DNA from: Patescibacteria group bacterium
Lineage (GTDB): Bacteria > Patescibacteriota > Minisyncoccia > Phycocordibacterales > Phycocordibacteraceae
NCBI GenBank assembly: GCA_038064695.1
Contig: JBBTSO010000001.1
Coordinates: 85,932 to 149,931, forward strand
DNA: 64,000 bases
Direction: 5' to 3'
Shown here piece after piece: positions 103-52,872 of the stretch. Below the pieces are notes generated by a model. The model was not told where the DNA came from and did not search any database. It saw nothing but the letters and a program-made list of their open reading frames with translations. Each line of letters opens with the position of its first letter. Positions within the stretch are counted from its first letter, which is position 1. Position numbers and translations under genes: made by a program.

Positions 103-510
103 GTGATTTCAGCTCAAAGTGCACTTTCGCACATCAGTAATAAATTTTTTTCCAAACTTCACCAAGCCATTAAAAAAAGGAAGATTATCACTGAAGCTGT
201 TACAGGAGAAAAAACACTGGCGTTGTTTGAGACGCTTCCCACCGAACTCCTTGAGTCCCACTGGGGTCGTGCCACTATTGTCCACGTTGTTCCTGATGAG
301 TACGCTTTTTTTGACGCAGATTTTTTTTCGGTTCAAGACAAACTCTACCTACTTAACTTTTCACAAGAGCTTGCCGTAATCATTTCCAACCCTGCTGTTA
401 CTCACGCATTTCACGCCCTTCTTGGTCTTGCTGTTCACGCAGGAAGACGTGTTGACCTTAACGGTCATATAGGCGCTATTTTAGAAAAAAGAAAATTAAA
501 TCTTCTTTAG
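103..510 (+). CDS. hypothetical protein (may be 5' truncated by window start)
   Basis: ORF of 135 aa with no recognised motif. Nothing rules out the reading frame continuing upstream of position 1. Confidence 0.3.
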   Translation: MISAQSALSHISNKFFSKLHQAIKKRKIITEAVTGEKTLALFETLPTELLESHWGRATIVHVVPDEYAFFDADFFSVQDKLYLLNFSQELAVIISNPAVTHAFHALLGLAVHAGRRVDLNGHIGAILEKRKLNLL

Positions 511-537
511 TTAACGGCGCTACGGTATAGTAACTGT

Positions 538-969
538 ATGGAGGTAACGTTGGAAAAAATGAGAGAATTCGCGGCGCAGTTTGTGGCGAGGTTGCCCAAA
601 GTTCCTGGTGAAAAGGCTCATATAGTGGGGCTTTCGGGTGATTTGGGTGCGGGGAAAACAACGTTTGTGCAGCACGTGGCGCGTGAACTTGGGGTGAAAG
701 AGCAGGTGACGAGTCCCACGTTTGTTATTGCGCAGGCATACCAAACGACGCACCCTCTCTTTACGCGCCTGGTGCATACGGACGCATATCGCCTTGAGGG
801 CGAAACCAAAGACACCGTGGGGTTTGAAGAGTTTTCACACGATCCCCACACCCTTATGCTCGTTGAGTGGCCGGAAAAATTACCTCGTGAGGCAATTTTT
901 CCGGCAGACGCCTCAGTGCTGAAGTTTGAGGTAGTGGATGATAACACAAGAAATATTTCTTATGCCTAA
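538..969 (+). CDS. tsaE: tRNA threonylcarbamoyladenosine biosynthesis protein TsaE (YjeE-type P-loop ATPase)
   Basis: P-loop GDLGAGKTTF, TsaE-like SPTF motif and the characteristic size of about 140 aa. Confidence 0.85.
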   Translation: MEVTLEKMREFAAQFVARLPKVPGEKAHIVGLSGDLGAGKTTFVQHVARELGVKEQVTSPTFVIAQAYQTTHPLFTRLVHTDAYRLEGETKDTVGFEEFSHDPHTLMLVEWPEKLPREAIFPADASVLKFEVVDDNTRNISYA

Positions 970-3364
970 AAAACAAAAGCCGATTTTGGTCTTGATTGAC
1001 TCCCACGCCATTATTCACCGTGCGTACCACGCGCTTCCTGAGTTGACTGACTCTAAAGGAAACCCTGCGGGTGCTTTGTATGGACTCGCCTCAATGTTGG
1101 TGAAGTTGATAAAAGAGCTCAAACCCGAACACATTGTGGCCGCGTATGACTTGGCAGGCCCCACGCACCGCCACGAAGTGTATGAAGACTACAAAGGCAC
1201 GCGTGCAAAAACAGACGACGCGCTCATTGCGCAGCTAGATCGTTCGCGTGATATTTTTGCCGCGTTCCACATTCCTATTTATGAAGCAAAAGGGTTTGAG
1301 GCAGACGACATTATTGGGACTCTCGCCACCACATTAAAAAAAGAATTTGACGTCGTTGTTGCTTCGGGCGATATGGACACGGTACAGTTGGTGGACGATG
1401 TAGGCGTGCGTGTCTTTACTCTTCGCAAAGGCCTTAACGACACCGTGATGTACGACGAGGCGGCGGTTATGGCGCGTTACGGGTTTGCGCCCGAGTTTAT
1501 TCCCGACTACAAAGGGTTTGCAGGCGATGCTTCCGACAACATCATCGGCATTTCTGGTATTGGCGAAAAAACGGCGACAAAACTCATTCAGGCGTACGGA
1601 AGTGTTGAGAATATTTACAAAGCGTTAGAAAAAAAACCGGAAGAATTTAAAGAAAAGACAGGGGTCACCGAGCGCGTTTTTAACTTGCTTCGCGACAACC
1701 AAGAAGAAGCTGAGTTTTCAAAAGTACTCGCCACTATACGCACCGATGCCCCCGTGGCGTTTGATGAAGAAGAAGCACACTGGCAAAAGAATTTTAGTAC
1801 TGACGCCGCAAAAAAACTTTTCACGGAACTTGGATTCAGGTCGTTGATCGCAAGAGTTGAGACTCTTGTGACAGGAAACAGTGATGAAGGGTCAGTAAAG
1901 AGTGAGAAAAAAGAACAGTTAGAAAAAACTGATGATTTGTCACCAATTCCTGTATACACCGCGGATTCCTTGCTTGCCAAGGAATCCGCGGTGATGCTCT
2001 GGCTTTTGCAGTCGGAAACCACAAACCCCTCTGTGGAAGATGTGCTCAACAACACGGACTCAAAAACATTAGAAGAAGCACACGAAAAACTGCTCCGTGA
2101 CCTCAAAAAAGAAAACCTTTTAGATATTTACGAGCGTATTGAAAAACCACTCGTTCGTGTGTTGGACGTAATGAACGCAAACGGTGTGTTAATTGACGCG
2201 CCGTATTTAAAAAATCTCTCCAAGGAGTACCACAAAGAGTTAGACGCGCTCGCAAAAGCGATTTTCAAAAAAGCAGGAAAAGAATTTAATATCAACTCAC
2301 CGAAACAGTTAGGCGAAGTGTTGTTCGTGCATATGGGTATCAAGCAGGCACGCGCGAAGAAAACCTCTACCGGCCAACTTTCTACCAAAGAGTCAGAACT
2401 TTTAAAACTTAAAGATGAAAACCCGATCATTGCTGACATTCTGGCGTACCGAGAACTCCAAAAACTACTTTCTACCTACATCGACGCTATTCCACCGCTT
2501 TTGGGCGAAGACGGTCGTTTGCATACCACCTTTATTCAAACAGGGGCGGCAACAGGCAGACTTGCCTCGCAAAACCCTGGGGTTCAGAATATCCCCGTCA
2601 AAACTGAGTTAGGGCGACGTATTCGTGGTGGGTTCGTTGCTCCAAAGGGCTCGGTGTTACTCGCGCTTGATTACTCGCAAATAGAGCTTCGCCTCGCCGC
2701 CATTCTTTCAGGGGACGAAAAGTTGAAACAGATTTTTATAAACGGGGAGGACGTACACACCGCCGTTGCCGCACGCGTGTTTGGCGTGGCGCCTGACGCA
2801 GTTGAGTATGAAATGAGACGCAGAGCAAAGGTCATTAACTTCGGCATTTTGTACGGTATGGGGGTGAATGCGCTTCGGGAACAGCTGGGAACGACCCGTG
2901 AGGACGCGCAGGCATTTCTTACGCGCTACTTTGAAACCTTTACGGAACTTGAGGCATACCTCACGAAAACAAAAGCAACCGCCACACGCCTCGGGTATAC
3001 CACCACCCTCTTCGGGCGAAAACGATTTTTCCCCGGACTCAAATCAAAACTCCCGTTCGTGCGCGCCTCATCCGAACGTATGGCGATTAACGCGCCCATG
3101 CAGGGGAGTCAGGCAGATATGATCAAACTCGCAATGGTTAATATCCAGGAGCGTATAGAAAAAGATTTTGCCGATACGGTGAAAATGGTACTTCAAATTC
3201 ACGACGAATTGATATTTGAAGTGAAAGACGACGCACTTTCTGTATTCACCCCCATCGCGCGGCATTTGATGGAGTCGGTACTGTCTAAAGAAGACGCGCA
3301 GGGCGTGCCCATTATTGTTTCAAGCGAAGCCGGTCCTTCGTGGGGGGAAATGAAGAGTATATAG
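962..3364 (+). CDS. polA: DNA polymerase I: 5'-3' exonuclease plus polymerase domains, 3'-5' exonuclease domain reduced
   Basis: Family A polymerase motifs DYSQIELR, RRRAKVINFGILYGM and QIHDELIFE. N-terminal FEN-like domain present. Start taken at ATG 962 (MPKKQKP) rather than 938, which overlaps tsaE. Confidence 0.93.
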   Translation: MPKKQKPILVLIDSHAIIHRAYHALPELTDSKGNPAGALYGLASMLVKLIKELKPEHIVAAYDLAGPTHRHEVYEDYKGTRAKTDDALIAQLDRSRDIFAAFHIPIYEAKGFEADDIIGTLATTLKKEFDVVVASGDMDTVQLVDDVGVRVFTLRKGLNDTVMYDEAAVMARYGFAPEFIPDYKGFAGDASDNIIGISGIGEKTATKLIQAYGSVENIYKALEKKPEEFKEKTGVTERVFNLLRDNQEEAEFSKVLATIRTDAPVAFDEEEAHWQKNFSTDAAKKLFTELGFRSLIARVETLVTGNSDEGSVKSEKKEQLEKTDDLSPIPVYTADSLLAKESAVMLWLLQSETTNPSVEDVLNNTDSKTLEEAHEKLLRDLKKENLLDIYERIEKPLVRVLDVMNANGVLIDAPYLKNLSKEYHKELDALAKAIFKKAGKEFNINSPKQLGEVLFVHMGIKQARAKKTSTGQLSTKESELLKLKDENPIIADILAYRELQKLLSTYIDAIPPLLGEDGRLHTTFIQTGAATGRLASQNPGVQNIPVKTELGRRIRGGFVAPKGSVLLALDYSQIELRLAAILSGDEKLKQIFINGEDVHTAVAARVFGVAPDAVEYEMRRRAKVINFGILYGMGVNALREQLGTTREDAQAFLTRYFETFTELEAYLTKTKATATRLGYTTTLFGRKRFFPGLKSKLPFVRASSERMAINAPMQGSQADMIKLAMVNIQERIEKDFADTVKMVLQIHDELIFEVKDDALSVFTPIARHLMESVLSKEDAQGVPIIVSSEAGPSWGEMKSI

Positions 3365-3390
3365 TATTTTGTATAGAGTATTTAGTATGG
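3363..3390. repeat. heptad-periodic ATACTNN array (inverted copy) abutting the start codon of the IVS-family gene
   Basis: Reverse complement reads atactaa-atactct-atacaaa-atactat. It pairs with the direct copy at 3761-3790. Confidence 0.6.
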
Positions 3391-3755
3391 GAATCAAACA
3401 TTTCTCAGAACTCGATGCTTGGAAGAAAGGGCACACGCTCGTTCTTCTTGTCTACGAATATACAAAAAATTTTCCTGATGATGAGCGGTTCGGTCTAGTT
3501 AATCAAATGCGCAGAGCTGCCGTATCAATTACCTCAAATATTGCCGAAGGCTTTGGAAGAACAACCATCAACGATAAAGTACATTTCTATACCATGGCAA
3601 AGACGTCGCTTTCAGAGATTGAAAACCAAATGCTAATAGCCAAAGACCTTGACTACGTGGCCACAAATATCTATGAGCAATTTAAAACTCTGGTCGATGA
3701 AGAACATCGCCTCCTGGGGGGTCTAATGAAATCGGCACGTTCAAAAACGCACTAA
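3387..3755 (+). CDS. four-helix-bundle protein of the 23S rRNA intervening-sequence family
   Basis: About 120 aa helical protein (GIKHFSELDAWKKGH...MRRAAVSITSNIAEGFGR) typical of the TIGR02436-like family. ATG at 3387 preferred over TTG at 3369. Confidence 0.7.
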   Translation: MGIKHFSELDAWKKGHTLVLLVYEYTKNFPDDERFGLVNQMRRAAVSITSNIAEGFGRTTINDKVHFYTMAKTSLSEIENQMLIAKDLDYVATNIYEQFKTLVDEEHRLLGGLMKSARSKTH

Positions 3756-3760
3756 TGCTC

Positions 3761-3790
3761 GATACTAAATACTGAATACTCTATACTGTG
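3761..3790. repeat. heptad-periodic ATACTNN array (direct copy) upstream of the holA-like start
   Basis: gatactaaatactgaatactctatactgtg gives four 7-bp repeats of ATACTNN and is the inverted partner of 3363-3390. Confidence 0.6.
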
Positions 3791-3793
3791 TGT

Positions 3794-4480
3794 ATGCTCC
3801 ACTTGCTTATTGGTGTTGATGTCGTGGCGGCAAAAGCCGAGGCGCGCAAGCGCGCCAAGGGGGAAGTGGTCGTATTTGGCGAAGGCGCGCAGTCATTCGA
3901 CACGGCGCTTTCATACCTTGGTTCACAAGGACTTTTTGCGCCAAAAATTTCACTCCTATTTGACCGCGCGCTTGAATCTGCTGAAGGAAAAGCACTATTT
4001 GAAGAACACGCAGAAACACTCCATTCGCATGATACGGATGTATTTGTGATTGAAACGTCACTGAACGCGGAAGTAAAAAAACTTTTTCCTAAAGGTGTTG
4101 AGGTAACAGACTTTGGGAAAAAAGAAGCGGAGGAAAAGCCGATGCCGTTTACGCTCACTGATTTATTTATGGCAGGCGACCGAAAAGGTGCGTGGATTGA
4201 ATACCAAAAACTTCTGGGGCAGGGACTTTCAGCAGAGGAAATTCACGGAACGCTTTCGTGGGCAGTGCGCAGTGCGCTTTTGTCAGCAAAAACAAAAAGC
4301 GCGGACGAGGCAGGGTTAAAACCATTCGTGTACACAAAATCAAAACGTTTCGCGGAAAAGCTCGGCGTCAATGTCGTTGAAAACCTTTCACGAAAGCTTG
4401 TCCACATTTACCACCGTGCCCGTGCGGGCCAGGGAGATATGACGCTCGGAATTGAGAAATTGATTCTGGAAAAAAGTTAA
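3794..4480 (+). CDS. holA: DNA polymerase III delta subunit-like protein (short)
   Basis: N-terminal LLIGVD resembles the delta-subunit start. Helical C-terminal region (LSWAVRSALL, LVHIYHRARAG). Located next to polA. Confidence 0.5.
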   Translation: MLHLLIGVDVVAAKAEARKRAKGEVVVFGEGAQSFDTALSYLGSQGLFAPKISLLFDRALESAEGKALFEEHAETLHSHDTDVFVIETSLNAEVKKLFPKGVEVTDFGKKEAEEKPMPFTLTDLFMAGDRKGAWIEYQKLLGQGLSAEEIHGTLSWAVRSALLSAKTKSADEAGLKPFVYTKSKRFAEKLGVNVVENLSRKLVHIYHRARAGQGDMTLGIEKLILEKS

Positions 4481-4839
4481 ATTGTTTTTAAAATTTCGCC
4501 TAACTTTGCAATCATTTCTTCAGAATTTTCGTACTCAAAACGCTGAGTAACAACGTTGTCTACGGAAAATGAGACGTGAGCACCTTTTTCAGACATCGCG
4601 ATTACCGGTACACCAAACGCATCTGCCCACCCCATTTCAATGCCTGTTCCGAGCGAGGGACGCGAAACTTCAGCAACAAGCACATCAGCTCCTCGAATCA
4701 TATCTCGCGTGATTTCCTCCACTTCACCCTCGTGGGGAAGTAGAATTTCATGCTCAGTGTTGAGCGAAGAGGTGCGGAATGGTTCGTAAATCTTATTTTT
4801 AAAATCAAAGTCGCTTGAGTGAGCAATGTAGATTTGCAT
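4477..4839 (-). CDS. nucleoside 2-deoxyribosyltransferase-like protein
   Basis: GTGIEMGWA...GVPVIA resembles the NDT active-site region (G.G.E.GYA...GKPV). The MQIYIAHS N-terminus fits the family fold. Confidence 0.5.
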   Translation of the reverse strand: MQIYIAHSSDFDFKNKIYEPFRTSSLNTEHEILLPHEGEVEEITRDMIRGADVLVAEVSRPSLGTGIEMGWADAFGVPVIAMSEKGAHVSFSVDNVVTQRFEYENSEEMIAKLGEILKTI

Positions 4840-4985
4840 ATAAAAAGTATAACAAAAATAGGAAACGTCTCATAACGCTCCGACCCGGACTTTGTCGTCA
4901 CGAATAATTACTCGTCAGCCCTCGTAATTTTCGCGACCCCGGCTCACGGTCTCGTCTGCTGACTCGACATCGTTCCGCCTCGGAC

Positions 4986-5016
4986 AAAATCATAAAACCT
5001 GCCGCAGGGCAGGTGT
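4986..5016 (-). terminator. intrinsic terminator downstream of tRNA-Lys
   Basis: In the minus sense the sequence reads cctgcc-ctgc-ggcagg followed by ttttatgatttt. Confidence 0.55.
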
Positions 5017-5028
5017 TTATGTATTTTG

Positions 5029-5101
5029 TCCGCCCGCTTGGGATCGAACCAAGGACCTTCTCCTTAAAAGGGAGCTGCTCTACCGGCTGAGCTACGGGCG
5101 G
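5029..5101 (-). tRNA. tRNA-Lys (anticodon TTT)
   Basis: Manual fold of the reverse complement: acceptor CCGCCCG/CGGGCGG, D arm GCTCAGCCGGTAGAGC, anticodon loop CTTTTAA, T arm CTTGGTTCGATCCCAAG. CCA is not encoded. Confidence 0.85.
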
Positions 5102-5139
5102 AAGTTGCTCACGAAAATGATGCGGAGCATCGGTTTTGT

Positions 5140-5262
5140 GAGAGAAAGAAAAAGGATGTTTATATACTTTTTCTTGAACAAACAAAACCGTTCGGGAGTA
5201 AATTTTGTTAGAACGCCCCGCCCGTATGAACCGGCTCTGCAAGCCGACGTCATACGGGCGGA
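5140..5262 (-). promoter_or_regulatory. conserved tRNA upstream module (hairpin plus promoter-like segment), copy 1
   Basis: Shares an ordered run of blocks with 17690-17830: ccgcccgtatga...tcatacgggcgg hairpin, ttttgt.agaacgc, acaaaa, tttat.ta. It lies about 40-160 bp upstream of the tRNA-Lys 5' end. Confidence 0.45.
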
Positions 5263-5868: not shown

Positions 5869-6218
5869 TACGGGAGATCAAACGCGATTGCGCCAGCGCC
5901 AGTTAAAACGAGTGTTGCCAAAATAGAAATGGCAAGTATTTTTTCTCGCCAGCCTTCTTTAGGGGCGTCTACCCCAAGCCACATGCCACGTAAAAAAACG
6001 ACCAGTATGCCAAACACGGCAACGAGTTGAGTGAGAAGACCCGCAGCAAAGAAGAGCGCAAACGCGAGCTCTTTGATCGCGAGGAGTTTACTCTTCTGAG
6101 TCTTTAGCATCCACATGCCGTAGGCGTGAAAGAGGAAGTACAACCCAATGCCTGCACGAAGCAGCACAGGGGCAAAGTAGGGGCCTAGAAATAGTAAGTC
6201 TGGAAAAATTGCGTTCAT
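5865..6218 (-). CDS. DoxX family membrane protein
   Basis: About 117 aa with 3-4 predicted transmembrane helices and DoxX-like composition. Confidence 0.55.
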   Translation of the reverse strand: MNAIFPDLLFLGPYFAPVLLRAGIGLYFLFHAYGMWMLKTQKSKLLAIKELAFALFFAAGLLTQLVAVFGILVVFLRGMWLGVDAPKEGWREKILAISILATLVLTGAGAIAFDLPY

Positions 6219-6223
6219 ATGTT

Positions 6224-6257
6224 CAGTATAGAGTATTGAGTATAAAGTATACAGTAT
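6224..6257. repeat. heptad-periodic ATACTNN array filling the 37-bp divergent spacer between DoxX and trmH
   Basis: Reverse complement reads atactgt-atacttt-atactca-atactct-atactg. Both flanking genes start within 8 bp of the array. Confidence 0.6.
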
Positions 6258-6735
6258 GGCTCAAAATATATTTCTCATCATTCACAACGTGCGGAGTGCT
6301 CACAATGTGGGTTCCTTGTTCCGCACCGCTGACGGCATGGGGGTATCAAAAATACTTTTGACAGGCTACACCGGTGCGCCCGTCGATCGTTTTAATAGAA
6401 AAGATTTAAAAATTGCGAAAGTTTCGCTTGGCGCGGAGGATGTGGTGCCGTGGGAAAAGAAAGATATTTTTGAATTGATTTATGATTTACGAAGTAAGGG
6501 TGTAGAGGTTGTGGCACTTGAACAAAGTGCACAGTCTATCTCGCTTGATTCTTTTGTCCCAAAAGGGCCGGTTGCGCTTATTGTGGGGAACGAGATAGAG
6601 GGAGTTACTGAAGATGTGCTGGCTCTTTGCGACGCTGTGATTGAAATCCCCATGAAGGGGGGAAAGGAGTCGCTCAACGTCTCAAACGCTGGCGCTATTG
6701 CGCTCTATCAGTTGTCACAAAAATTGGAATTCTAA
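6256..6735 (+). CDS. SpoU/TrmH family RNA 2'-O-methyltransferase
   Basis: C-terminal SPOUT motif IEIPMKGGKESLNVSNAGAIALYQL. Confidence 0.8.
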   Translation: MAQNIFLIIHNVRSAHNVGSLFRTADGMGVSKILLTGYTGAPVDRFNRKDLKIAKVSLGAEDVVPWEKKDIFELIYDLRSKGVEVVALEQSAQSISLDSFVPKGPVALIVGNEIEGVTEDVLALCDAVIEIPMKGGKESLNVSNAGAIALYQLSQKLEF

Positions 6736-10977: not shown

Positions 10978-11049
10978 AAAGACAGTATAGAGCACTCCGC
11001 ACTCATCATTCAGTGCCAGTGCGGTTCAAACAAAAATGCTGATTTCCTT

Positions 11050-11077
11050 GATACTTTATACTGAATACCGTATACTG
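11050..11077. repeat. heptad-periodic ATACTNN array upstream of rpsT
   Basis: gatactttatactgaataccgtatactg matches 3761-3790 at 22 of 26 positions. It ends 10 bp before the rpsT ATG. Confidence 0.6.
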
Positions 11078-11086
11078 CTTTTCTAT

Positions 11087-12958: not shown

Positions 12959-14254
12959 ATGAAGATTGCTCACATTCACGCGCGCGAAGTTTTTGATTCG
13001 CGAGGCACACCCACTTTAGAGGCAGAAGTAACCACTGAACACGACATAGTGGGGCGCGCCATAGTTCCTTCAGGTGCTTCAACAGGTACCCATGAAGCTC
13101 ATGAGCTCCGAGATAATGATGAAAAACGCTTTGGGGGAAAGGGAGTATTGAAAGCGGTTAGGCACGTGAACGAAGACATCGCGCGAACGCTCATCGGGAT
13201 GCCCATAGATGCGCAGGAAACCATTGACGAGGCACTGATTACGCTTGACGGGACTCCGAATAAAAAACGCCTCGGGGCGAACGCGCTTCTCGGGGTGTCG
13301 CTTGCGACCGCTCACGCCGCAGCGAAAGAAAAAAACATTCCTCTCTATGAGTACGCGAGTCTTCTTTCAGAAGAAAAACGCGAGCCGGTGTTGCCGCTTC
13401 CGCTCATCAATATTTTAAATGGGGGCGCGCATACGCTCTGGGAATCTACCGACATTCAAGAGTTTATGATTGCTCCCGTGGGAGCTGACTCGTTTTCGCA
13501 CGCGCTTCAGATGAGCGCGGAAATTTTTCACGCGCTCAAAGGCGTCTTGAAAGAAGCGGGATACGGGACGGGAGTGGGGGACGAGGGAGGGTTTGCGCCT
13601 GCGCTTAAAGACGGTAACGAAGAAGCGTTTGCACGAATTGCCGAAGCGGTCGGGAATGCAGGGTACGTGTTGGGAAGCGACGTGGTGTTTGCGCTTGATA
13701 GTGCCGCTTCAGAATTTCATCGTGGAGAATCGTACGCGCTTCCGCTTGCGGGCAGAACTCTCACGAGCGATGAGATGATTTCGTGGTATCGCTCACTTTC
13801 AAAAAAATTCCCCATTGCTTCTCTTGAAGATGGGCTTGCAGAAGGTGATTGGGATGGGTGGAGACTCCTTACTCGTGAACTAGGGGACACGATGCAACTT
13901 GTAGGAGATGATCTTTTGGTTACCAACACCACGTTTTTAAATCGGGCAATAGAGGAAAAGGCAGGGAACGCTATTTTAATAAAGGTGAACCAAATAGGAA
14001 CACTCACTGAAACTATTCGTGCCGTTGATAGTGCGCACCGCGCAGGGTGGCGCACCGTTATGTCGCATCGTTCAGGAGAAACAGAGGACACTACCATCGC
14101 ACACCTTGCGGTAGGGTTGGGGTGCGGGCAGATAAAAACAGGGTCGCTCAGTCGTTCTGACCGTGTCGCGAAATACAACGAACTGCTTCGTATTGAAGAA
14201 CGTTTAGGAGACCGCGCAGTATTTGCGGGAAATGTTTTTCTTACTAATAACTAA
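12959..14254 (+). CDS. eno: enolase
   Basis: [38 protein letters not shown] and [10 protein letters not shown]. Start at ATG 12959. Confidence 0.95.
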
Positions 14255-14280
14255 CCACTAGCCACTAAACACTAATTTCT

Positions 14281-14898
14281 ATGGCACATCTTTTTTTAAT
14301 GCGACACGGCATGAGCGAGTGGAACAAGCTCGGACTCTGGACTGGGTGGACTGACGTTGATTTGGCTCCGGAAGGGAGAAATGAAGCACGTGCCGCTGCA
14401 AAGTTTTTTAAAGATGTTGCAATTCAGAGTGTACACACTTCTACACTGAAACGCGCGCAACAGACTTTTGCTGAAATTCAAAAAGAACTTTCGTGGCATG
14501 ACCTTGAGCCGTGTGTCTCACCGGCATTAAACGAGAGAAACTATGGGGTTTACACGGGACTCGTAAAAGAAGAAGTGCGAAAAAAGGTAGGGGAGGAGGA
14601 GTATAAAAAAATTAGACGCGGTTTCTCCCATCCCATTCCTGAAGGAGAGTCACTCGCAACCGTGTTTGAGCGCATTAGCTGTTATTTTGAAGATCATGTT
14701 CGCCCTGAACTTCGTCATGGGAAAAACGTGCTCATCGTGGCTCACGGCAACTCGCTCCGCGCACTCGTCAAATACTTAGAAAACATTGACGACGAATCTA
14801 TTGTTGACGTGCATATAGAAACGGGGGAAGTGTACCGGTATGAATTTGATTCGCGCGGACTCTTGGTGGGGAAGCAGATACTAAAAAACGCCGCGTGA
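14281..14898 (+). CDS. gpmA: 2,3-bisphosphoglycerate-dependent phosphoglycerate mutase
   Basis: LMRHGMSEWN (RHGxSEWN motif) and a histidine phosphatase fold. Confidence 0.85.
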   Translation: MAHLFLMRHGMSEWNKLGLWTGWTDVDLAPEGRNEARAAAKFFKDVAIQSVHTSTLKRAQQTFAEIQKELSWHDLEPCVSPALNERNYGVYTGLVKEEVRKKVGEEEYKKIRRGFSHPIPEGESLATVFERISCYFEDHVRPELRHGKNVLIVAHGNSLRALVKYLENIDDESIVDVHIETGEVYRYEFDSRGLLVGKQILKNAA

Positions 14899-23832: not shown

Positions 23833-23873
23833 CCCTGTATACTAGACACTATGAATCCCGTTAGAATTTCTAG

Positions 23874-23907
23874 AAAGAAAAATTATCATATATGATAATT
23901 TTTCTTA
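23874..23907. promoter_or_regulatory. 32-bp perfect palindrome inside the ruvX leader (candidate operator)
   Basis: aagaaaaattatcatat|atatgataatttttctt. It lies between the inverted repeats at 23854-23870 and 23974-23987. Confidence 0.5.
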
Positions 23908-23986
23908 AAATGTTACCGTTGGAGCAAACTATCCAGAATGGGTACCCGATACACGCATGAATAACAAAAACCAAAATTCTAACGGG

Positions 23987-24385
23987 ATGAAGTGCGTTGG
24001 CATTGACTACGGAACAAAGCGCGTCGGGGTTGCGGTGTCGGACGAGGCGGGGAGACTCGCATTTCCTAAAATGACGCTCCCTAATGACAAAATGCTTATC
24101 AGCGACGTGGTTGCTTTTATAAAAAAAGAGAAAGCAGAGTGCGTCGTGGTGGGGGAATCTAAAAACAACCAGGGCCTGGAAAACCCCGTGATGCAGGGCG
24201 CGCGCGACTTCGCCAAAATGATAGAGCGTGAGACGGGGCTCACGGTTGTGTTTGAGCCAGAGTTCTATTCATCTCTAGAGGCGCGCCGTTTAATGGACGG
24301 CGGAGGCCAAGTCGATGCGGAAGCAGCTGCTATTATTTTAAATAGTTATCTTGCTAGAATAAATACCTATGACGATTTCAATTGA
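23987..24385 (+). CDS. ruvX: Holliday junction resolvase-like protein RuvX/YqgF
   Basis: MKCVGIDYGTKRVGVAVSD, a RuvC-like fold. Start taken at ATG 23987. Confidence 0.85.
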   Translation: MKCVGIDYGTKRVGVAVSDEAGRLAFPKMTLPNDKMLISDVVAFIKKEKAECVVVGESKNNQGLENPVMQGARDFAKMIERETGLTVVFEPEFYSSLEARRLMDGGGQVDAEAAAIILNSYLARINTYDDFN

Positions 24386-25327: not shown

Positions 25328-25440
25328 AGCAAATCGTCCGCGCGTTTTGAATGTAGGGCGCGTTTTTTGTTGCGTATAATAGTGGTATGGATTTGTTTAC
25401 GCACCTCGGCGCTGTGTTTCCACCTCCCGCGTACCTTGCG

Positions 25441-29135: not shown

Positions 29136-29194
29136 GCTGAGTTTGAATCATAGTATATTAAGCGCCGTTTTTCAAACCGCGGTATAGTTCTTGC

Positions 29195-29473
29195 ATGGGC
29201 GCCGCACTGCACACAATTATTTCCGGGCGAGTACAAATGGTGATGTTTCGTGACTTCACCCAACGTAAGGCTCGTGAACTTGGATTAGTTGGGGAGGTGG
29301 AAAATCTCCCCGACGGTACCGTGCGTGTGTACGCCGAAGGGGAGAAAGAAAAACTTGAAAAGCTCGTTGAACATCTTAATAAAGGGCCTCTGCTTGCACA
29401 TGTTGAGAATGTGGCGGTGTCTTTTTCTGATGCGGTTGGGACCCATAAAGATTTTGTCATTCTATTTGAATAA
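29195..29473 (+). CDS. acyP: acylphosphatase
   Basis: VQMVMFRDFTQRKARELGLVGEVENLPDGTVRV matches the acylphosphatase signature pattern. Confidence 0.75.
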   Translation: MGAALHTIISGRVQMVMFRDFTQRKARELGLVGEVENLPDGTVRVYAEGEKEKLEKLVEHLNKGPLLAHVENVAVSFSDAVGTHKDFVILFE

Positions 29474-39116: not shown

Positions 39117-39233
39117 GGAAGACAGTGTACAGCGGATAGTGTTCAGTGGATAGTTGAAAACAAAAAACTAGATATTTGTGGAGAGCCATACGTCGCTTGA
39201 CATTTCTTTTTTACCATAGTATAAAGGATTTCT

Positions 39234-47942: not shown

Positions 47943-48026
47943 TAATAGGAAACAGTAATGAGTGAAGAGTAATCAGCGGTGAGTAATGAGAGATAGAAAT
48001 GAGTATCGTATAATGCAAAGATATGG

Positions 48027-48139
48027 ATCCCGTTAGAAATAACGGACTCCTAAAAGTTTTCATGTTTATTTTTATTAAAAAACTTAACCGAATAGGCGTG
48101 CGTAATAAAATTACGTTTACGTCCTATTTCTAACGGGAT
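48027..48139 (+). promoter_or_regulatory. inverted-repeat-bracketed 5' leader of the surface-protein gene
   Basis: atcccgttagaaat (48027-48040) pairs with atttctaacgggat (48126-48139). The downstream arm abuts the ATG at 48138. Same architecture as the ruvX leader. Confidence 0.45.
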
Positions 48140-50003: not shown

Positions 50004-50046
50004 GTCATACGAAGTATGACCAGTAAACAGGAATCAGTAATGAGTT

Positions 50047-51453
50047 ATGAGTGAAAACCAAGAAAACGTAATGGAAAAAATTGTGTCGCTCGCCAAAAGG
50101 CGCGGGTTTATTTTTCAAGGTTCTGAAATTTATGGGGGGCTTGCGGGCGTGTATGATTTTGGCCCGAACGGAGTGGAACTTTTAAGTAACATCAAACAGT
50201 CGTGGTGGAAAGCGAATGTGTACGATAAAGAAAACTATTTTGGTATTGATTCTGGAATGTTCAAACATCCCAAAACGTGGGAGGCGTCTGGCCACACGAG
50301 CGGGTTTTCAGACCCACTTGCGGAGTGTAAAAACTGCAACACGCGCATTCGTGTTGATAAAGAGCTCGCCGCGCTTGGTGTAGAGGCGGATGAAAAAATG
50401 TCTGAGAGCGAGCTCAACGAGTTGTTTGACGCGCATCGGGAGAAAATAAAATGCCCTACCTGTGGTAAAAAAGATTTTTCAAAAGTCCGCGCGTTTAACT
50501 TGTTGGTGAAATCAAATCTCGGCGACTTCACTTCCGAAGGTACCGACCCGGTGTACCTGCCGGGCGAGGCGTGCCAGGGAATCTACCTCAACTTTAAAAA
50601 TATTGTGGACAGCATGCACCCGAAAATTCCTTTCGGCGTTGCGCAAATCGGTAAGGCATTTCGAAATGAAATCAGTCCTCGTAACTTTCTTTTTCGTACA
50701 CGCGAGTTGGAACAGGCGGACACGCAGTACTTTGTAAAACCAAACGAAAACAAAGATGCGTACGAAAAAATAAAACAAGAACGCTGGCAGTGGTATCTAA
50801 GTTTGGGCATTGAAGAAAACAAACTGCGTTGGAAACAACATGAAAACCTTGTCTTCTACGCGAAAGACGCGTGGGACATTGAGTACGAATTTCCGGGAGG
50901 GTTTGATGAAGTGGAAGGTATCCACGACCGCACTGACTACGACTTAACCCAGCATATGAAGTTCTCTGGAGTTGACCTACGCTACACCGACCCGGAAACC
51001 GGCGAGAAGTACATTCCGTGGATTCTTGAAACTTCTATGGGTGTGGGGCGCGTATTCCTTGCGGTGCTTGCAAACGCGTACCGCGAAGATGAACTCGGAG
51101 GGGAGAAGCGCGTGTACTTAAAACTTCCTCCGCACCTGGCGCCCGTAAAAGCGTGCGTGTCGCCACTCCTTAAAAACAAACCAGAGTTGGTTGAAAAAGC
51201 GCGGGAAGTCTATGCAACACTCAAAAAAGAGGTTCCACAAATCGTGTGGGACGACAACGGCAATATTGGTAAACGCTACCGCCGTCAAGACGAAATTGGT
51301 ACGCCGTTCTGCATCACCGTTGATTTTGACACCTTGGGCGAACACGCGGAACTAAAAGACACCGTAACGCTGCGCCACCGTGATACTGGAGAACAGGAGC
51401 GTTTGAGTATTGAAGATGTCGTTAAAAAAGTAAAACAGAAAATTACTTTGTAA
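50047..51453 (+). CDS. glyQS: glycyl-tRNA synthetase (alpha2 dimeric type)
   Basis: RRGFIFQGSEIYGGLAGVYDFGPNG, class II motifs, a zinc-ribbon insert and a C-terminal anticodon-binding domain. Confidence 0.85.
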   Translation: MSENQENVMEKIVSLAKRRGFIFQGSEIYGGLAGVYDFGPNGVELLSNIKQSWWKANVYDKENYFGIDSGMFKHPKTWEASGHTSGFSDPLAECKNCNTRIRVDKELAALGVEADEKMSESELNELFDAHREKIKCPTCGKKDFSKVRAFNLLVKSNLGDFTSEGTDPVYLPGEACQGIYLNFKNIVDSMHPKIPFGVAQIGKAFRNEISPRNFLFRTRELEQADTQYFVKPNENKDAYEKIKQERWQWYLSLGIEENKLRWKQHENLVFYAKDAWDIEYEFPGGFDEVEGIHDRTDYDLTQHMKFSGVDLRYTDPETGEKYIPWILETSMGVGRVFLAVLANAYREDELGGEKRVYLKLPPHLAPVKACVSPLLKNKPELVEKAREVYATLKKEVPQIVWDDNGNIGKRYRRQDEIGTPFCITVDFDTLGEHAELKDTVTLRHRDTGEQERLSIEDVVKKVKQKITL

Positions 51454-52287: not shown

Positions 52288-52314
52288 CGTATAACTCTTT
52301 GATATAGTGCCGGT

Positions 52315-52872
52315 ATGAAAAAAGTTTTTATTCTCCACGGGTGTCCGTCTTTTGAAAAAGAAGGTCCAGAGCAGACCTATGCGAAACACTGGATGCCGTG
52401 GATAGAGAGAGAACTTATTGAAAGGGGATATGAAGTAGTGCGCCCCATGATGCCAGAGCCGTGGGCGCCGAAGTACGCTGCATTTAAAGAAGAATTTGAG
52501 AAAAACGAAATACCTGATGATGCTATTTTGATTGGCCACTCTTGTGGCGCCGCGTTTTTAGTTCGGTGGCTTGGAGATACAAAGCACAAGGCCTCACAAT
52601 TAATTTTAGTCGCTCCTTGGAAAATTCCTGATGAAGGTGATGTGGGGCGGCAAAAATACTATGGCTACGACATAGACAAAACAATTCCATCTCGAGTGCC
52701 GAATATCGTGATGTTCACTTCTGACACTGAGGAAGAAGAGGGGAAAGAGAGTGTAAAAATTTTTCACGAAGCGCTCGGCGGAAAGTTGATAGAATTAAAA
52801 AACAAAGGACACTACAAGCTTGGGGAAATGGGCGGAGAAGAGTTTCCTGAACTTCTTGAAGAAATTTTATGA
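52315..52872 (+). CDS. RBBP9/YdeN-family serine hydrolase (alpha/beta fold)
   Basis: LIGHSCGAAFL nucleophile elbow and the family-typical length of about 185 aa. Confidence 0.65.
   Translation: MKKVFILHGCPSFEKEGPEQTYAKHWMPWIERELIERGYEVVRPMMPEPWAPKYAAFKEEFEKNEIPDDAILIGHSCGAAFLVRWLGDTKHKASQLILVAPWKIPDEGDVGRQKYYGYDIDKTIPSRVPNIVMFTSDTEEEEGKESVKIFHEALGGKLIELKNKGHYKLGEMGGEEFPELLEEIL

Follow-up and report, generated by a model that had tools for sequence, protein, structure and literature searches.

The 23S ribosomal RNA (rRNA) of Coxiella burnetii contains an intervening sequence (IVS) of 428 nt that carries an S23p open reading frame (ORF) and is bounded by terminal inverted repeats, whose pairing gives a 28-bp stem that RNase III cleaves (PMC4990558). 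Tandem heptamers (GACAGAT, three copies) lie before the ATG of this ORF, cleavage occurs at the first repeat, and the number of repeats varies between strains (PMC4990558). ORFs of the 23S_rRNA_IVP family have also been noted in rRNA insertions of the candidate phyla radiation (CPR; bioRxiv 10.1101/2024.02.27.582315), and four-helix-bundle (4HB) genes wedged in cas operons have been reported to be possibly associated with them in function (PMC3936711). Arrays of intergenic heptamers, which often converge in pairs, are known from Xanthomonas (GGGAATC) and Nostoc (GGGGAYT) (PMC4692102), as are paired heptanucleotide 'global regulator sites' from Geobacter metallireducens (PMC2700814), in neither case with a link to 4HB or S23p genes. 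Here we analysed a 64,000-nt stretch (the window) of a Patescibacteria group bacterium genome (contig JBBTSO010000001.1, positions 85,932 to 149,931), in which a 4HB gene of the S23p family lies between polA and a holA-like gene and is enclosed by two inverted arrays of 7-nt repeats. The unit at 3356-3789 is probably an IVS-type insertion cassette located between two protein genes, with inverted arrays of 4-5 heptads as its terminal arms, a reading proposed because the Coxiella IVS has the same plan (S23p ORF, RNase III-cut stem arms and heptamers).

The inserted unit between polA and holA

All coordinates are those of the whole 64-kb window, cores are written for the + strand, and a heptad is a 7-nt unit in which the 2-nt NN is a spacer. 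The locus comprised the following features.

938..3364, + strand: polA (DNA polymerase I), full length, with PF00476, PF02739 and PF01367 matches
3356..3390, - strand: left arm, five heptads reading AGTATNN on the + strand and ATACTNN on the - strand
3387..3755, + strand: 4HB gene of the S23p / 23S_rRNA_IVP family, 122 aa
3755..3789, + strand: right arm, four ATACTNN heptads and one degenerate unit, inverted relative to the left arm
3782..3787, + strand: TATACT -10-like hexamer in the last right heptad, 6 nt before the holA ATG (3794)
3794..4480, + strand: holA-like gene (DNA polymerase III delta-like), weak TIGR01128 match and synteny

The left-arm units were, in order, AGTATAT, AGTATTT, TGTATAG, AGTATTT and AGTATGG, with cores starting at 3356, 3363, 3370 (TGTAT), 3377 and 3384. 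The right arm opened with the degenerate unit ATGCTCG at 3755 and continued with ATACTAA, ATACTGA, ATACTCT and ATACTGT (ATACT cores at 3762, 3769, 3776 and 3783), where the 'gaat' gap of the original prediction proved to be one additional heptad, ATACTGA. Tandem Repeats Finder detected 4.7 copies of a period-7 repeat at 3356-3388 and 3.9 at 3762-3788, and an inverted-repeat search matched 3356-3388 to 3755-3787 over 33 nt at 76% complementarity, rising to 94% in an 18-nt core, which confirmed that the two arrays are reverse complementary. Their tight enclosure of one small gene was likewise borne out, as the 4HB ATG (3387) lies inside the last left heptad AGTATGG and the TAA stop (to 3755) overlaps the first, degenerate right heptad. 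On the outer side of the left arm, the terminal codons of polA, AGT ATA TAG (3356-3364; the last two sense codons and the stop), fall within the first heptads.

These heptad arrays are not due to chance. A column-consensus period-7 detector calibrated on shuffles called nine arrays in the window and none in the shuffles, and periods of 5, 6, 8 and 9 gave 0-2. The sequence ATACTNNATACTNNATAC, searched at <=3 mismatches, had 18 matches in the window compared with 2.5 +/- 1.6 in shuffles, the array matches falling in four clusters only (3350-3388, 3755-3793, 6219-6257 and 11044-11075).

In a profile search the enclosed protein scored far above the cut-offs of both PF05635 (118.9 bits vs 33.8, E=1.4e-34) and TIGR02436 (110.4 bits vs 24, E=4.7e-32). 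Its closest solved homologue was XCC0516 (PDB 2GSC, E=6.5e-21), which was deposited with five chains and is described as a homopentameric toroid (PMC4990558). Residues R42, R43, S47, S50, N51, E54 and G55 were invariant in a 40-sequence alignment and correspond to the conserved GxxRxxxSxxxNxxE-type motif of 4HB proteins, of which 3252 homologues were found at E<=1e-10. The downstream gene reached 37 bits against TIGR01128, below the cut-off of 80, and by synteny corresponds to the gene found after polA in relatives; profile matches and synteny together upheld the placement of the 4HB gene between polA and a holA-like gene. An Rfam search of 3000-4200 returned no relevant RNA family.

The window belongs to a Paceibacteria/Kaiserbacteria-like CPR genome from Hainich groundwater. 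The junction was compared with 80 polA-anchored loci (numbered with the prefix L) taken from species-representative genomes. In the nearest relatives by polA identity (L005, 68%; L006, 67%; L014, 62%; L011, 60%) and in others, holA begins 6-22 nt after polA with no array and no 4HB gene, the spacer containing one -10-like box, for example TATACT-N7-ATG in L005. Relatives with polA followed by holA and no insert, which the original prediction had proposed to look for, therefore exist, and because these closest relatives run polA directly into holA the 4HB gene and its arms represent an insertion. This comparison gives good support to the 4HB gene and the two inverted arrays as one discrete, self-contained inserted unit, as distinct from an ordinary gene. 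The 4HB protein is the only ORF of the unit, and no direct repeat was present outside the arms.

The closest 4HB homologue (P0002, 64% identity) lies at this polA|holA junction too, in a genome that is more distant (L171; polA 62%, holA 47%), so the insertion must be either old or recurrent. The arms in L171 have the same core, the same numbers of units (five left and four right) and the ATG in the last unit, while their spacer bases differ, and among five polA-end junctions that were compared GTAT cores at 7-nt spacing were the only invariant columns. These alignments indicate that heptad cores and spacing are under selection, as neutral DNA would not be expected to retain them at such divergence.

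The polA|holA junction is also a hot spot for insertions in Paceibacteria. L008/L009 (6193-8154) have 2 kb inserted there, with a toxin-antitoxin-like pair, and the gaps of L062, L071, L074, L078, L082 and L084 contained a membrane protein of ~160 aa with a conserved 'YGxPYxEYKKxV' C-terminus. Because such unrelated inserts occur there in other lineages, the junction is tolerant of insertions.

The same bracket across the family

The flanks of 4HB genes were surveyed in 82 loci, consisting of 80 metagenome loci found by a scan with the 40-homologue alignment, the window and L010. A heptad array was located upstream of the 4HB gene in 63 of 77 loci (~82%), downstream in 65 of 77 (~84%) and on both sides in 52 of 72 (72%), at a background density in the same loci of 0.37 arrays per kb. 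Arrays had a modal length of 4-5 units on both sides, the median gap between the array end and the 4HB ATG was 2 nt, and the downstream array overlapped the stop codon. In 41 of 58 loci the left core agreed at >=6/7 positions with the right core read in reverse complement, compared with 17% of cross-locus pairs. The bracket is therefore an architecture of the whole family, and a look at the flanks of other IVS-family genes, as had been suggested, found inverted heptad arrays around nearly every one.

The core heptad itself varied from locus to locus (AGTATNN, GAATTAT, GATTTAA, AGTAAAT, GAGTTAA and others), and many loci share one core family, which deprived a cross-locus Smith-Waterman control of discriminating power. 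Core similarity correlated with protein identity (Spearman 0.33), a value reached by 0 of 500 permutations in a Mantel test, and because of this correlation the arms appear to travel with the gene.

The same layout recurred at several unrelated positions. In L010 a 53%-identical homologue lies between ruvB and ruvC, with AGTAT-type heptads running into its ATG and ATACT heptads after its stop that end in the TATACT-N7-ATG of ruvC. The same bracket was found in conjugation-like operons (L097 and L172) and in the ftsE region of L176. Six cyanobacterial or Gemmatimonadota plasmid loci (L165-L170) had genes annotated as 'four helix bundle / S23 ribosomal' wedged in operons at positions such as nrdB|nrdA, cas6|cas4 and cmr2|cmr3. 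Several of these (L165, L168 and L169) were flanked by heptad arrays resembling the short tandemly repeated repetitive (STRR) sequences, as in L165 (Nostoc edaphicum), where GTAGGGA x8 and TCCCTAC x5 surround the 4HB gene. None of 20 sampled 4HB loci adjoined rRNA. The original prediction had described the family as usually found inside 23S rRNA IVSs; since 0/20 sampled loci adjoin rRNA, this is not the usual home of the family and that description was not sustained.

Some individual loci had further peculiarities. The homologue in L010 (2119-2522, - strand) is split into two overlapping frames, by a frameshift or an assembly error, with both arms intact. One VirB4/TraC-type conjugation-like operon (L097, Ga0265296_1000084, 318-5195) held four 4HB cassettes between consecutive genes, each with its own heptad arms and together representing at least two protein subfamilies, the first apparently sitting in the remnant N-terminus of another. 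The 4HB arrays of Pseudanabaena, with 14 and 10 units, were very long, and some of their sequence ran in direct orientation. Many 4HB homologues were located on very short contigs (0.5-2 kb), which fits repeat-flanked elements breaking metagenome assemblies.

The family survey also bears on the simplest alternative, namely that slippage-prone AT-rich microsatellites happen to flank a small gene. Heptamer repeats are indeed over-represented in bacterial intergenic DNA (PMC4692102) and their copy number varies between Coxiella strains (PMC4990558), but the bracket occurs in dozens of independent loci with different cores and is conserved in 64%-identity orthologues. With no arrays in shuffles, a family-wide bracket and conservation in L171, coincidence is effectively refuted and we assign it a negligible probability.

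Predicted arm pairing, promoter geometry and solo arrays

In the predicted RNA fold of 3345-3800 the arms formed a terminal stem, both in the minimum free energy and in the centroid structure, and the hairpin of the arms alone had a predicted energy of -28.3 kcal/mol (z = -6.3). In 73 loci the mean energy of the arm-arm duplex was -28.3 kcal/mol compared with -17.1 for shuffled arms. Processing of the cassette arms by RNase III may be inferred by analogy with the rRNA elements; a search of the 64-kb window with an E. coli sequence as query gave no RNase III (rnc) match, a negative that carries no weight.

Promoter geometry at the junction was consistent with a unit fitted to its host operon. 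A promoter scan identified TCGATA-17-TATACT at 3759-3787, i.e. a -35-like hexamer that matches the -10. In the window TANNNT occurs exactly 6 nt before the start codon of 16 of 87 predicted genes, compared with ~2 at other offsets, TATACT is the commonest -10 form in the genome and Shine-Dalgarno-like sequences are rare; widespread leaderless transcription is suggested for the source CPR genome. Examples of TANNNT-N6 were recorded at 523-537, 3782-3796, 4840-4854, 6216-6230, 25372-25389, 29180-29197 and 52300-52317. The right arm has this leaderless-promoter geometry with respect to holA (TATACT-N6-ATG, a predicted promoter). The only such sequence that the left arm offers the 4HB gene is TAGAGT-N7-ATG, and it is conserved neither in L172 nor in L176. 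Judged from its sequence, the cassette supplies both the polA stop and a predicted leaderless holA promoter, so it would sit between packed essential genes without polarity.

A course of events can be proposed on this basis, in which the cassette would have entered a very short polA|holA spacer and be built for survival in the host operon. The left arm gives polA its last two sense codons and stop, the 4HB ATG lies in the innermost left heptad, and the outermost right heptad gives holA its predicted TATACT-N6-ATG leaderless promoter. In a read-through polA-holA RNA the arms could pair into a stem of ~30 bp closing off the 4HB ORF, and in the rRNA-borne relatives (Coxiella, Leptospira and Salmonella) such a stem is the structure excised by RNase III. 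The mobility of the cassette, its way of moving and the role of the 4HB protein are inferred.

Several results weigh against an IVS-type cassette with stem-forming arms. The pairing tests showed no preference for the transcribed strand: the sense duplex was no better than the antisense duplex (34 vs 39 loci), and there was no excess of G.U over A.C mismatches (31 vs 36, with 128 transversions). The 2-nt spacers were unmatched unit by unit between the arms (206 vs a null of 212.8), and a test of whole-unit order gave only a small excess (16.8 vs 15.9, p=0.0055). Within the window there was no transposase, target-site duplication or second 4HB copy. In an unbiased 972-kb sample of the polA-anchored relatives, which contained 72 heptad arrays (0.074 per kb) and one 4HB gene, 70 of the 72 arrays were not next to a 4HB gene and 29 of 54 non-coding arrays lay <=40 nt upstream of a start codon.

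With no asymmetry between sense and antisense or between G.U and A.C, RNA-level selection on arm complementarity was unsupported. The repeated core and its spacing seem to be selected more strongly than pairing, because the spacers are barely matched between the arms. An autonomous insertion sequence or a miniature inverted-repeat transposable element (MITE) with target duplication was rejected, there being no transposase, no duplication and a single copy in the window. The mini-cassette of the original prediction accordingly stood as a discrete insertion with a bracket that recurs elsewhere; its suggested recent transposition did not, with neither a target duplication nor a second copy found in the window.

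Arrays without a 4HB gene were present in the window itself, including two of the ATACT type.

6220..6260, - strand: solo ATACT-type array, five heptads between divergent DoxD-like and SpoU-methylase genes
11044..11080, + strand: solo ATACT-type array, four heptads at ruvA|rpsT, with TATACT-N10-ATG upstream of rpsT

The array at 6220..6260 provides TATACT-N6-ATG for the - strand gene, and its last unit holds the SpoU ATG. At the DoxD-like|SpoU and ruvA|rpsT junctions of relatives single -10 boxes were found, and the rpsT array was absent. Because arrays also stand alone, both at these two places in the window and in 70/72 cases of the 972-kb sample, the arms are not specific to the cassette. 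Their proposed role as cassette boundaries thus held in so far as they bracket 4HB genes and failed as an exclusive one. Only four ATACT arrays occurred among the ~87 genes of the window; they do not flank most genes, the outcome that the original prediction had named as refuting it. Arrays with other cores (ACTAACC, GACAGTG/14-mer and CAGTAAT; period 7 or 14) were located at 14241-14281, 39121-39150, 47944-47990 and 50017-50052, all intergenic and directly upstream of gene starts, with no 4HB gene nearby. In other genomes ORF-less, back-to-back inverted array pairs were detected in L067 (at the same polA|holA junction), L100 and L038, and solo AGTAT arrays followed polA in L008/L009 and L058, the latter joining polA directly to holA with the holA ATG in its last unit.

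These observations raise the alternative that the arrays are host promoter or gene-junction elements, either reiterated -10 boxes or a start-proximal signal, and that the 4HB gene was merely acquired with the inversion being incidental. The commonness of TATACT as a -10 box, the dominance of the TANNNT-N6-start geometry (16/87 genes), the solo ATACT arrays at gene starts where relatives have single -10 boxes, the L058 array linking polA to holA, and the position of 29/54 non-coding arrays close to start codons all agree with it. Nevertheless, four ATACT arrays are few for ~87 genes, and arrays occur at 82-84% of 4HB genes compared with 0.07-0.37 per kb elsewhere. The two sides are also consistently inverted with a locus-specific shared core, many cores (for example TTAACTC, TAAATC and CTTGTAT) would make poor -10 boxes, the upstream arm lacks a consistent TANNNT-N6/7 before the 4HB ATG (L172 and L176), and cores co-vary with the 4HB protein. 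We consider this explanation improbable.

Alternatively, the arrays could be heptad 'iteron' sites for DNA or single-strand binding that work in both orientations. The 4HB protein itself may be the binder, each subunit of its pentameric toroid taking one heptad. The bracketed 4HB gene would then be the 'master' copy of a dispersed repeat family, as the REP-associated tyrosine transposase (RAYT) is for repetitive extragenic palindromic (REP) sequences; solo arrays and pairs lacking an ORF would represent either non-autonomous derivatives or targets of regulation. Retention of cores and 7-nt spacing while spacers drift, arm complementarity without strand asymmetry, a unit number peaking at 4-5 on both sides, and the five chains of 2GSC with its description as a homopentameric toroid (PMC4990558) are all in line with such binding. 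Arrays are also ~5-fold denser around 4HB genes (0.37 vs 0.074 per kb), a core in common with the neighbouring 4HB gene is more frequent among nearby solo arrays than among arrays at other loci (34% vs 9% at >=6/7, p=2e-4), and arrays greatly outnumber 4HB genes. On the other hand, binding by the 4HB ring is hypothetical, and several cores coexist in short stretches of one genome (L010, L045 and the window, the last with ACTAACC, CAGTAAT and ATACT) where no more than a single 4HB gene can be detected close by. A catalytic motif that would cut or join DNA is not known from 4HB proteins, and shared descent alone could produce the correlation between core and protein. This can be viewed as a possibility on the unlikely side. 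The insertion cassette, host promoter elements and iteron-like binding sites are not mutually exclusive.

Two further features of the window concern neither the cassette nor its arrays. Four copies of the 12-mer ATCCCGTTAGAA (expected 0.3) form two inverted pairs, at 23855-23988 and 48027-48139, in two different intergenic regions with pair members ~100-120 nt apart. They have the look of another small palindromic (MITE-like) element, unrelated to the cassette; its two copies start ATG(G/A)ATCCCGTTAGA, which could also be the start of a short peptide. A tRNA-Lys(UUU) lies at 5028-5101 (- strand), and the overlapping 114-aa ORF at 4898-5242 is almost certainly spurious.

Significance and comparison with known systems

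The PF05635 family, related to the protein Avd of diversity-generating retroelements (DGRs), is very large, and no function is known for it. Annotation usually treats its members as stand-alone 'four helix bundle proteins', and those in cas or conjugation operons are sometimes read as functional partners. If it is true that almost every member is an IVS-like cassette with heptad arms, these operon associations would become insertions, the classical rRNA IVS would be a special case of a general between-gene element, and there would be a concrete link to the unexplained excess of intergenic heptamers known since the cyanobacterial STRR repeats. The cassette also illustrates how an element that comes with its own stop codon and predicted leaderless promoter could lie between packed essential genes without causing polarity, and the wider pattern is a worthwhile lead into the large PF05635 family. 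We found no publication stating a general heptad bracketing of 4HB genes, only the single case of Coxiella, in a literature coverage that was incomplete, so that a prior description is possible.

A broader and rather speculative interpretation would regard PF05635 genes and heptad arrays as one cross-phylum system resembling RAYT and REP, in which a pentameric toroid would recognise ~5 heptads and its own gene would always be nested in an inverted pair. It is similarly doubtful, though conceivable, that STRR sequences, the GGGAATC pairs of Xanthomonas, the 'paired sites' of Geobacter and the solo ATACT arrays of the window are dispersed targets or non-autonomous derivatives of a non-catalytic ring.

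The likeness to REP sequences, REPINs (REP doublets) and RAYTs consists of a small gene flanked by inverted short repeats that are also dispersed singly or as inverted pairs, and is an analogy only. Unlike a RAYT, the flanked gene encodes a four-helix bundle without HUH/Y1 (IS200/IS605-like) transposase motifs (Pfam and NCBIfam returned 4HB families only), and unlike REP the repeat is a tandem heptad array and not a palindromic hairpin. MITEs and Correia/NEMIS-type elements resemble the cassette in being small, having terminal inverted repeats, occupying gene spacers, possibly providing an outward promoter and existing in ORF-less versions, but no transposase partner, target duplication or high-identity multicopy family was seen here. 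Avd shares a homologous four-helix-bundle fold family. Identity with DGR Avd was rejected, as scores fell below the cut-offs of PF22296 bAvd (29 bits vs 40) and NF033474 (33 vs 80), and so was a role as a DGR component, the neighbours being polA and holA with no adjacent reverse transcriptase or template repeat/variable repeat (TR/VR) pair.

The intergenic heptamer families (cyanobacterial STRR, Xanthomonas/Nostoc and Geobacter) likewise consist of tandem 7-nt units that are mostly intergenic and often form convergent pairs on opposite strands; their cores are G-rich, whereas those of the window are AT-rich. Resemblance to the rRNA IVSs of Coxiella and Leptospira extends to the PF05635 family, an ORF of ~120 aa filling a 0.4-kb element, terminal inverted repeats that close the ORF in a predicted stem, heptamers directly before the ATG, and tolerance inside an essential transcription unit. 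In contrast to these IVSs, the window cassette is placed between protein genes instead of in helix 25 or 45 of 23S rRNA and has arms that consist wholly of 4-5 heptads with poorly matched spacers; the arms also carry a stop codon for the upstream gene and a -10 box for the downstream one. What is new in this locus is a probable IVS element at a non-rRNA site whose arms are made wholly of heptad arrays.

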